From assembly GCF_053078305.1 (NCBI RefSeq), contig NZ_CP166879.1: a stretch of 64,000 bases of DNA; one strand, 5' to 3'. The position numbers were made by a program, and so were the translations under genes. Positions 60,142-62,055 of this stretch are shown here, one piece after another (the stretch's first letter is position 1; each line of letters opens with the position of its first letter). The notes beneath the pieces were generated by a model. The model was not told the DNA's origin, ran no database searches, and saw only the letters and a program-made list of their open reading frames with translations.

Positions 60142-62055
60142 ATGGCATTTAAACACTATGACGTGGTCAGGGCGGCGTCGCCGTCAGACCTTGCGGAAAA
60201 ACTGACTCAAAAACTGAAGGAAGGGTGGCAGCCTTATGGTAGTGCCCTGATTTCGACAGCTGGTTATGGTGCGGAGTTTATCCAGCCTGTTGTGAGTGAC
60301 AGGGATATCTCATCACCTGCGGAGCCAGGCAGTCACCCGACCGTTTCAACGAAGCCTGCAGCCGAACCAGAATATTACTATGTGATCGCGCTTGCTGGTC
60401 AGTCCAATGGTATGTCATACGGTGAGGGGCTGCCATTACCGGATACATTCGACAGCCCTGATCCACGAATTAAACAGTTAGCGCGCCGCAGTACGGTGAC
60501 ACCGGGAGGTGCTGCTTGTACCTATAACGATATTATCCCGGCAGATCACTGTCTCCATGATGTGGAGGATATGACAGGGCTTAATCATCCCAAAGCGGAT
60601 TTATCGAAAGGTCAGTACGGCTGTGTGGGACAGGGGCTGCATATCGCCAAAAAGCTTCTGCCATTTATACCGGCGAATGCGGGCATTCTTCTTGTTCCGT
60701 GCTGCCGTGGTGGTTCAGCTTTCACCACCGGAACTGATGGCACATACAGTGACACTACTGGCGCCTCAGAGAGTTCCACCCGCTGGGGGGTGGACAAGCC
60801 GCTGTATAAGGACCTCATTGGTCGTACAAAAGCCGCGCTGGCGAAGAATCCGAAAAATGTGCTGCTTGCCGTTGTGTGGATGCAGGGGGAGTTTGATTTC
60901 AGCGGCACGCCAGCGAATCACACGGCTCAGTTTGGCGCACTGGTGGATAAATACCGTGCGGACCTTGCAGATATGGTGGGACAGTGTGTTGGTGGTTCTG
61001 CTGACGGTGTTCCCTGGATTTGTGGAGACACAACATATTTCTGGAAGCAGAAGAACGAAACGGCGTACCAGACGGTGTACGGTAGTTACAAAAACAAAAC
61101 GGAAAAGAATATCCATTTCGTGCCGTTCATGACCGATGAGAACGGGGTGAATGTGCCGACGAACAAACCGGAAGAAGACCCGGATATTCCGGGTATCGGG
61201 TATTACGGTTCAAAATGGCGAACGGACAGAAGCACCTGGACATCTCAGGACAGGGCCAGTCATTTCAGTTCATGGGCTCGCCGTGGGATTATTTCCGACC
61301 GTCTGGCAACGGCGATTCTGAGCTGCGCGGGTAAGTCTTCTGCGTTTGTTAATGGTACTGCCGGGGTGGTTGTTCCAGACAGACCGGTTACCACCTCAGA
61401 GTCTGTAATTTTTTACGATGCCAAAAAAGCTTCAGACAATCAGCTGAAACCTTATGGCTGGGATGGTATGGATGGCAGACGCACACTGGTTGATGACAGC
61501 GGCAATAAAGCTCTGCGAATTGAGAAAAATAACAGCGCGAAATCCTGGTCAATGTACTGTGATATTGCTGCAGACAAGGCAAAACTGTTACTGGAAAAAG
61601 GCGGGGAAATTGCTGTCCGGTTTAAAATCCCCGAAAACGTCAATCTTGAAACAACCAGAAACAAGTATGCCTTTGGTTTGTACTGGCGAATAGCGGAATG
61701 GCCGGGTGAGGGTGGTGAAGGCTATCTGAGTTCTTTCTTTGTCCAGACAGATAAAGCCAGTATTGATGTTGCATACCATCATACAGGTAATCAACAAAAA
61801 GAACTTGGCACGTTTGGCGCATTCGACCATGACTGGCATACGCTTGCATTTAAATTTAAGGGCAGTAACAGCATTAATGTTACTCCGGTGCTTGATGGTG
61901 TGGATGGACAGGCGTTTGACCTGGTGAAATGGGCCAATACTGCTAATGAACTCAACAGGTTTGTCATTACGGATATTACAGGTAGTGCAGAAACCTACCC
62001 TGTACTTATTGATACGGTGGAAGTTAAAGCAAACAAAGCTGGAGCAGCCGCATAA
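60142..62055 (+). CDS. prophage-encoded sialate O-acetylesterase NanS-p-like (N-terminal DUF1737-type domain plus SASA esterase domain)
   Basis: ORF 60034..62055; ATG at 60142 with a GGGAGGA RBS (MAFKHYDVVRAASPSDLAEKLTQKLKEGWQPYGSALIST...). Esterase motif ALAGQSNGMSYGEG. Confidence 0.75.
   Translation: MAFKHYDVVRAASPSDLAEKLTQKLKEGWQPYGSALISTAGYGAEFIQPVVSDRDISSPAEPGSHPTVSTKPAAEPEYYYVIALAGQSNGMSYGEGLPLPDTFDSPDPRIKQLARRSTVTPGGAACTYNDIIPADHCLHDVEDMTGLNHPKADLSKGQYGCVGQGLHIAKKLLPFIPANAGILLVPCCRGGSAFTTGTDGTYSDTTGASESSTRWGVDKPLYKDLIGRTKAALAKNPKNVLLAVVWMQGEFDFSGTPANHTAQFGALVDKYRADLADMVGQCVGGSADGVPWICGDTTYFWKQKNETAYQTVYGSYKNKTEKNIHFVPFMTDENGVNVPTNKPEEDPDIPGIGYYGSKWRTDRSTWTSQDRASHFSSWARRGIISDRLATAILSCAGKSSAFVNGTAGVVVPDRPVTTSESVIFYDAKKASDNQLKPYGWDGMDGRRTLVDDSGNKALRIEKNNSAKSWSMYCDIAADKAKLLLEKGGEIAVRFKIPENVNLETTRNKYAFGLYWRIAEWPGEGGEGYLSSFFVQTDKASIDVAYHHTGNQQKELGTFGAFDHDWHTLAFKFKGSNSINVTPVLDGVDGQAFDLVKWANTANELNRFVITDITGSAETYPVLIDTVEVKANKAGAAA

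Follow-up and report, generated by a model that had tools for sequence, protein, structure and literature searches.

A NanS-p-type sialate O-acetylesterase gene among the late genes of an Escherichia coli lambdoid prophage without stx

Does a gene that stands where Shiga toxin (Stx) phages keep their late accessory genes, in an Escherichia coli prophage that has no stx genes, still encode a sialic acid esterase of the kind known from enterohaemorrhagic strains, and if so, would the enzyme serve the lysogen or the phage particle? The locus that raises this question is nanS-p, at 60142-62055 of a stretch of 64,000 nucleotides (nt) from contig NZ_CP166879.1 (RefSeq assembly GCF_053078305.1). This whole stretch, hereafter "the window", to which all coordinates below refer, is E. 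coli chromosome (yfaL, gyrA, rcsC, rcsB) followed by a lambdoid prophage. An initial annotation, made from the letters alone, had called the gene a NanS-p-type sialate O-acetylesterase gene of the late region. Our analysis supports this call, the product having the three NanS-p domains and the active-site blocks of E. coli NanS, and nanS-p very probably codes for an intact sialate 9-O-acetylesterase of the NanS-p type with three domains, belonging to a lambdoid prophage that has no stx genes and is related to Stx phages.

The reading frame itself is confirmed. It runs on the plus strand, as do all features below unless stated otherwise, from an ATG at 60142 to a TAA stop codon at 62053-62055, without interruption over 637 codons, and its product of 637 amino acids (aa) matches PHROG 143 from end to end (1069 bits). 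A strong ribosome-binding site, the Shine-Dalgarno sequence GGGAGG (60132..60137, from reading of the sequence), stands 4 nt 5' of this ATG. The N-terminus quoted in the initial annotation, MAFKHYDVVRAASPSDLAEKLTQKLKEGWQPYGSALISTAGYGAEFIQPV (50 residues), is the exact start of the translation, and the esterase segment quoted with it, ALAGQSNGMSYGEG, is present at aa 83-96 (nt 60388-60429). The longer frame that a mechanical open reading frame (ORF) call opens at GTG 60034 (673 aa) was rejected, since MAFKHYD is the start of all homologues compared (five other loci) and it is the ATG at 60142 that has the Shine-Dalgarno sequence before it. We likewise rejected a pseudogene, or an allele disrupted by an insertion sequence as described for some O157 phages, since the frame is intact. 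A second copy was sought by tblastn in the 64-kilobase (kb) window and none was found, so that nanS-p is present there once. NCBI already lists an identical protein of 637 aa, encoded on 22 contigs, as EFA9656861.1 and others.

What does this frame encode? Pfam finds both of the domains that had been anticipated, DUF1737 (3.6e-17) and SASA (7e-9), plus DUF6645 (1.7e-27). The DUF1737 domain (PF08410) occupies 60148..60300 (aa 3-53), is 90.7% identical to that of phages 933W and phi24B, and keeps Tyr42. It is followed by linker 1 (60301..60369, aa 54-76), which is rich in Pro, Ser and Thr and has, in the alignment, a DISSP motif at aa 55-59. The SGNH type II / SASA esterase core (60370..61323, aa 77-394) is matched by E. 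coli NanS (structure 3PT5) over aa 73-394 with an E-value of 1.4e-117. Linker 2 (61324..61419, aa 395-426) is unrelated to the 933W/phi24B linker (21.6% identity) and is without the SSP motif of the latter. Finally, the C-terminal domain (61420..62052, aa 427-637), a DUF6645 lectin-like jelly-roll domain of a rare allele, is matched over aa 427-631 by structure 6YP6 of the phi24B NanS-p C-terminal domain (E 6e-42; phmmer against PDB sequences), with a Pfam envelope (PF20350) at aa 484-595. With phmmer values such as those for 3PT5 and 6YP6, and PHROG 143 at 1069 bits, the match to NanS-p is far above chance. The SGNH fold of the product is deduced from its sequence homology to 3PT5, and that of the C-terminal domain likewise from 6YP6.

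The esterase call depends mostly on the catalytic residues, and alignment finds all four NanS blocks in the product. These are Block I, GQSNG, at 60397-60411 (aa 86-90), with Gln87 and with Ser88 at 60403-60405; Block II, RGGSAF, at 60706-60723 (aa 189-194), and Block III, MQGEFD, at 60880-60897 (aa 247-252), both the same as in 3PT5; and Block V, RASHFS, at 61252-61269 (aa 371-376), with His374 at 61261-61263. The active-site blocks of 3PT5 read GQSNA, RGGSAF, MQGEFD and R-x-SHFS (PMC10792757). Ser88, Gln87 and His374 align with Ser19, Gln18 and His301 of NanS, an enzyme whose active site has no Asp and in which these residues act as nucleophile, oxyanion residue and base, respectively (PMC9063846; PMC9487903); a role has also been described for the QGE motif of the SASA-specific Block III, (H/M)QGE (PMC9487903). 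To judge from this alignment, Ser88 would be the nucleophile and His374 the base, in an Asp-less arrangement as in E. coli NanS, and Gln87 would form the oxyanion hole together with the RGGSAF Gly and the MQGEFD network.

The characterised homologues indicate what such a site may do. NanS has its highest activity on 9-O-acetyl Neu5Ac (PMC9487903). The NanS-p of 933W is reported to be an active Neu5,9Ac2 esterase, the enzymes of 933W, EDL933 and O104:H4 (all five of the latter) are reported active, recombinant NanS-p enzymes de-O-acetylate mucin glycans, and genetic work in EDL933 and O104:H4 shows that nanS-p genes support growth of the lysogen on Neu5,9Ac2 (all PMC8065619); further evidence for activity of homologues is found in PMC10462455. 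By analogy, the SASA domain of the window protein would cleave the 9-O-acetyl ester in Neu5,9Ac2 and in the O-acetylated sialic acids of mucin. The "fitness factor" role that the initial annotation gave to the enzyme comes from work on these homologues (reviewed in PMC8065619).

How far does the likeness to EHEC (enterohaemorrhagic E. coli) prophage NanS-p extend? It holds for the N-terminal two thirds (91-92% to 933W/phi24B, with 92.1% in the catalytic domain) and fails in the C-terminal domain, which is a different and rarer allele (39.2% identical to that of phi24B). Homology to 933W at the DNA level ends at nt 61331, at the end of the catalytic domain, and resumes at nt 62057, directly past the stop codon; the GC content is 44.6% in the C-terminal part against 52.9% in the remainder of the gene. 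Because of this break in homology, the low identity and the shift in GC content, linker 2 and the C-terminal domain together look to be a swapped cassette. Among 5426 complete genomes of E. coli, 43 have the C-terminal allele and 1300 the N-terminal two thirds. At 99% identity the same C-terminal domain is found in a Stx1c phage and in strain JNEC-KY171 (98% aa identity for the whole protein); the phage, phiSTEC1589-Stx1c, has its nanS-p after stx1AB. The allele is also shared by a stx-less prophage of O104:H4 and by Shigella dysenteriae Sd197, whose protein is the representative of the 90% cluster. That NanS-p proteins are diverse in all three domains, and most of all in the C-terminus, has already been described (PMC10462455).

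The placement of the gene in the late region also holds, since nanS-p lies between antiterminator Q and the holin and lysozyme genes. The order is Q (54320..54745; 64% aa identity to Q of 933W, Q933), a block with pR', qut and tR' (59353-59668), nanS-p, the class II holin S (62767..62982, 71 aa; from the translation and the annotation of the homologous locus by the NCBI Prokaryotic Genome Annotation Pipeline, PGAP) and the lysozyme R (62987..63520, 177 aa; from the ORF list and the annotation of the homologous locus), with DUF1378 and DUF826 ORFs also 3' of nanS-p. The block is 92.5% identical to 933W 20651-20957, a stretch that takes in the final 27 nt of Q933 together with pR', qut and a pair of terminators. 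It has a late promoter pR' of the 933W type (59368..59395; -35 TTTACA, -10 TATCAT; promoter scan and homology) 747 nt 5' of nanS-p, a tR'-like terminator hairpin after pR'/qut (59426..59445; terminator scan, homology to annotated 933W terminators, and sequence check) and a second terminator (59631-59661; terminator scan and 933W homology). Homology to 933W picks up again at 59690, which corresponds to 46 nt past the stxB stop. A comparison with 933W shows that its stx2AB genes are absent from the window, and a scan for tRNA genes across the whole window gave none, which means that the ileZ, argN and argO of 933W are absent too. The late region is therefore of the Stx-phage type in its position and its late-gene order, and departs from that type in having no stx or tRNA genes in the window; because of these absences the host element is a non-Stx lambdoid prophage of Stx-phage type.

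A few observations on this region can be set beside its gene order. An STnc100-family small RNA (sRNA) gene (59719..59930; Rfam RF02076, full-length model, 167.6 bits for a gathering score of 47) lies 212 nt 5' of nanS-p, which fits the described synteny of sRNA (pasD/STnc100), esterase for sialic acid, holin and lysozyme (bioRxiv 10.64898/2026.05.13.724894). In Stx phages the short transcript from pR' to tR' is the sRNA StxS (PMC7547250), and a StxS-like RNA could, by analogy, be made from pR'/tR' in the stx-negative prophage of the window. The pR'/qut/tR' block, which begins 8 nt before the stop of a restriction-modification specificity gene, is there without cognate Q, tRNA or stx. A second, promoter-like site, found by promoter scan, directly follows the prophage's own Q (54742-54769), and a sok/hok module and a restriction-modification cassette fill the stretch between the two promoter regions.

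When, then, would the enzyme be made, and for whom? Because the gene is part of the late operon, after Q and the pR'/qut/tR' block and before holin and lysozyme, NanS-p would be expected, from what is known of its homologues, to be made on prophage induction under the control of Q. Q-modified polymerase passes terminators in lambdoid phages, and the simplest expectation is that read-through by such a polymerase from the first promoter (54742-54769) feeds nanS-p. In other strains, nanS-p and stx are co-induced by mitomycin C (PMC10462455). The N-terminus of the product, MAFKHYDVVRAASPSDLAEK, is without a hydrophobic stretch in a reading by eye, and the protein appears to have no signal peptide, with DUF1737 standing in its place. 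Because there is no export signal, the product would probably leave the cell at lysis, free or displayed on virions, and the benefit, again by analogy with the homologues, would be growth of surviving sibling lysogens on mucus sialic acids.

Several points weigh against this reading and should be stated together. The Pfam SASA envelope is partial, covering aa 155-276 only, with the E-value of 7e-9 given above. A search of NCBIfam gave no matching model for the product; the model is missing from that collection, and we do not take this null result as evidence against the assignment. An AlphaFold 2 model computed from a 6-sequence alignment was poor (mean predicted local distance difference test score, pLDDT, 41.9) and was not used for the geometry of the active site. 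Of the four aromatic residues proposed to bind sugar in phi24B, two are retained here (as Y509 and Y514) and two are altered, Y540 conservatively to F533 and F611 to N602, with loss of the aromatic side chain; because of these two changes the ligand preference may differ. The pR' beside nanS-p is of the 933W type, and the prophage's own Q, 64% identical to Q933, is 5.4 kb upstream behind the restriction-modification cassette, so that either promoter may drive nanS-p. Finally, the capsid genes of the prophage lie beyond the end of the window (nt 64000), so that its capsid module is outside the stretch analysed, and this bears directly on the first alternative.

That alternative, to which we give slightly less than even credence, is that NanS-p is primarily a virion component, with DUF1737 hexamers sitting on the hexons and with esterase and lectin domains that serve the particle, by holding it in mucus or by aiding its movement, the benefit to the lysogen being a by-product. 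The orthologue gp84 of phi24B is a capsid-decoration protein: proteomics and cryo-electron microscopy place its N-terminal domain, a DUF1737 hexamer anchored by Tyr42, in the central hexons of the N4-gp56-like capsid, and the full-length protein is found in fresh virions (bioRxiv 10.64898/2026.04.10.717836). The same protein later processes itself near SISSP, and ISSP has been proposed as the autoprocessing site (bioRxiv 10.64898/2026.04.10.717836). In the window protein, the DUF1737 domain is, as said, close to that of phi24B, its "tooth" residue Tyr42 and the ISSP of linker 1 are conserved, and the gene is in the late operon, all of which would suit display on the capsid; the SSP motif of linker 2 is not conserved. 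On the other hand, this reading rests on a single preprint on one phage, the capsid module has the placement just mentioned, and nanS-p supports growth of the lysogen on Neu5,9Ac2 in EDL933 and O104:H4 (PMC8065619). We think that a virion role overlaps with the esterase reading preferred here and does not exclude it, and that the virion may profit from the enzyme no less than the lysogen does.

A sister prophage in strain 2012EL-2448 is informative on this point. It is 98% identical to the window prophage over most of 24 kb, and its major capsid protein does not differ from the phi24B one (100% identity); its nanS-p allele is 59% identical overall to that of the window, with DUF1737 nearly unchanged. 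A constant DUF1737, a cargo at about 59% and the same capsid as phi24B together suggest a fixed capsid anchor with exchangeable cargo, and this too speaks for a virion component. As a separate observation, Block III of the 2012EL-2448 gene (L009 29615-31636) reads MLGEFD instead of MQGEFD, so that the Gln of QGE is replaced, and the activity of that protein may be altered or lost. One may go further and regard NanS-p as a modular capsid-display system, in which a constant DUF1737 anchor sits on an invariant capsid, the esterase and especially the lectin-like domain are swapped, and the rare C-terminal allele of the window redirects virions or enzyme to a mucus or host glycan different from that of the O157-type protein. 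This allele has two of the four ligand aromatics changed, a lower GC content and no SSP motif; we regard this extended proposal as unlikely, though by no means negligible.

We find it quite improbable that the enzyme naturally acts on an O-acetylated glycan of the bacterial surface, for example O-antigen or an O-acetylated capsule, and aids access of the phage to its receptor. The possibility was raised in a review (PMC8065619), the phi24B protein is virion-associated, and the C-terminal alleles, whose mosaic boundaries here are nt 61331 and 62057, are exchanged like cassettes, a pattern often met in host-range determinants. Against it, the core is close to NanS, which prefers 9-O-acetyl Neu5Ac (PMC9487903), recombinant NanS-p acts on mucin glycans (PMC8065619), a capsid facet is an unusual site for a receptor-modifying enzyme, and we found nothing that speaks directly for such a substrate. 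Least probable of all, to the point that we would hardly entertain it, is a silent remnant, in which nanS-p is intact and unexpressed in a prophage that is defective or whose late transcript stops short: the adjacent hok is frameshifted, the 933W-type pR' has no cognate Q, and two terminators and a 4.6-kb cassette separate nanS-p from the prophage's Q, but all 637 codons form one open frame in which the catalytic residues are conserved, a strong ribosome-binding site precedes it, the same protein is on 22 contigs with near-identical alleles in 43 complete genomes, the genes for integrase, Q, holin and lysozyme are likewise intact, and Q-modified polymerase passes terminators in lambdoid phages.

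The cassette that separates Q from the 933W-type pR' is a BcgI-like restriction-modification pair, and is more unusual than nanS-p itself. Its first gene (55276-58176) encodes a BcgI-like type IIG restriction enzyme-methyltransferase (full-length model match for the part after the repeat, PADLOC E 4.8e-234; N6_Mtase, and a weak VRR_NUC), and a phage record annotates the homologous gene as "BcgI alpha chain-like". Directly after its ATG at 55276, which is conserved and preceded by a ribosome-binding site, comes a tract of 120 perfect GACCAGC units (55285-56128, 844 base pairs, bp), which in the window is in frame with the restriction enzyme that follows it (post-repeat part 56131-58173). Across 13 loci the number of units goes from 23 to 120, the window having the longest tract, and the frame is open in four of the 13; sibling isolates differ from each other (G8 has 99 units, G6/7 83 and G1/2 91; OkiPb01692 has 30 and OkiPb01714 23). 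The second gene, a type II specificity subunit ORF (58251-59360; PADLOC match, 1.3e-18), has in its middle a 24-bp repeat (IEELEAAH; 58657-58723), with two full units in the window, one in most relatives and in OkiPb01692, and three in the sibling isolate OkiPb01714. This repeat resembles that of EcoR124I/II, which alters the spacer length of the recognition site. To judge from its sequence, the pair looks like a candidate phase-variable and specificity-variable restriction-modification system in E. coli prophages. As an alternative, translation would start after the GACCAGC repeat and the tract would be a leader. PGAP sets the start of the gene past the nuclease region or at a point well within it, and the tract itself is given a spurious ORF on the minus strand, named "YXWGXW repeat protein". 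We found no paper describing a repeat-bearing prophage restriction-modification system, a full-text search for GACCAGC dimers returned none, and a survey of repeats in type I restriction-modification genes does not mention Escherichia.

As to the prophage as a whole, 44 bp separate its integrase gene (41482-42771, minus strand) from the start codon of rcsB, and the element is inserted between rcsB and rcsD (region 40787-42771); in 2012EL-2448 the same prophage, of about 65 kb, splits an intact rcsD from rcsB and carries at its far end a gene for an S6-family (SPATE-like) peptidase and YadA-like genes. At 54776-55101 the sok antitoxin RNA (RF01794, 97.6 bits) adjoins hok, which has a 1-nt insertion after codon 9 and hence a frameshift; PGAP flags the same in 2018-166 and 2012EL-2448, and hok is intact in JNEC-KY171 and G8.

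What is gained from this locus should not be overstated. The protein and its allele type are already recorded, as are cases of it in non-Stx prophages; NanS-p is a described and biochemically tested family, and the finding adds little to it. Its main use is correct annotation, since the names given by the NCBI pipeline vary ("DUF1737-", "DUF6645-containing", "SASA family esterase"). Besides, Stx-type phages exchange accessory genes in their late region between Q and S, and the window adds one more example, with a restriction-modification cassette in place of the toxin genes.

Among known systems the closest in plan are the NanS-p of 933W (L0105 / z1466; NP_049502) and that of phi24B (vb_24B_21 / gp84), which have the same three domains and identical active-site blocks and whose gene, as here, has the late promoter region on one side and the holin gene on the other; in 933W, in contrast to the window prophage, nanS-p follows tRNA genes and stx2AB. 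Closest in allele are the proteins of O104:H4 (WP_000874468.1), phiSTEC1589 (XYH49091.1) and Sd197 (YjhS; ABB61536 / Q32GL9), with the same C-terminal allele and in the same 90% cluster. The window protein is 93% identical overall to the first and 96% to that of the Stx1c phage, and the differences among these alleles are a few dozen substitutions and one residue more in linker 1; in O104:H4 nanS-p directly follows Q, whereas here the restriction-modification cassette is in between. For a display on the capsid, an analogy has been proposed with capsid decoration proteins of the T4 Hoc type, in which a protein of the capsid surface interacts with the glycans of mucus (phi24B preprint, discussion; bioRxiv 10.64898/2026.04.10.717836), but there is no sequence relationship with Hoc, and NanS-p is an enzyme, occupies the pore of the hexon as a hexamer and undergoes proteolytic processing. 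The chromosomal NanS of E. coli (YjhS, 3PT5) belongs to the same SGNH type II / SASA family, with the same four blocks and the Asp-less Ser/His pair, but is a single-domain protein, to which the prophage-borne protein of the window adds DUF1737 and the C-terminal lectin-like domain. NanS, whose gene is part of the nan regulon, has a signal peptide for export.

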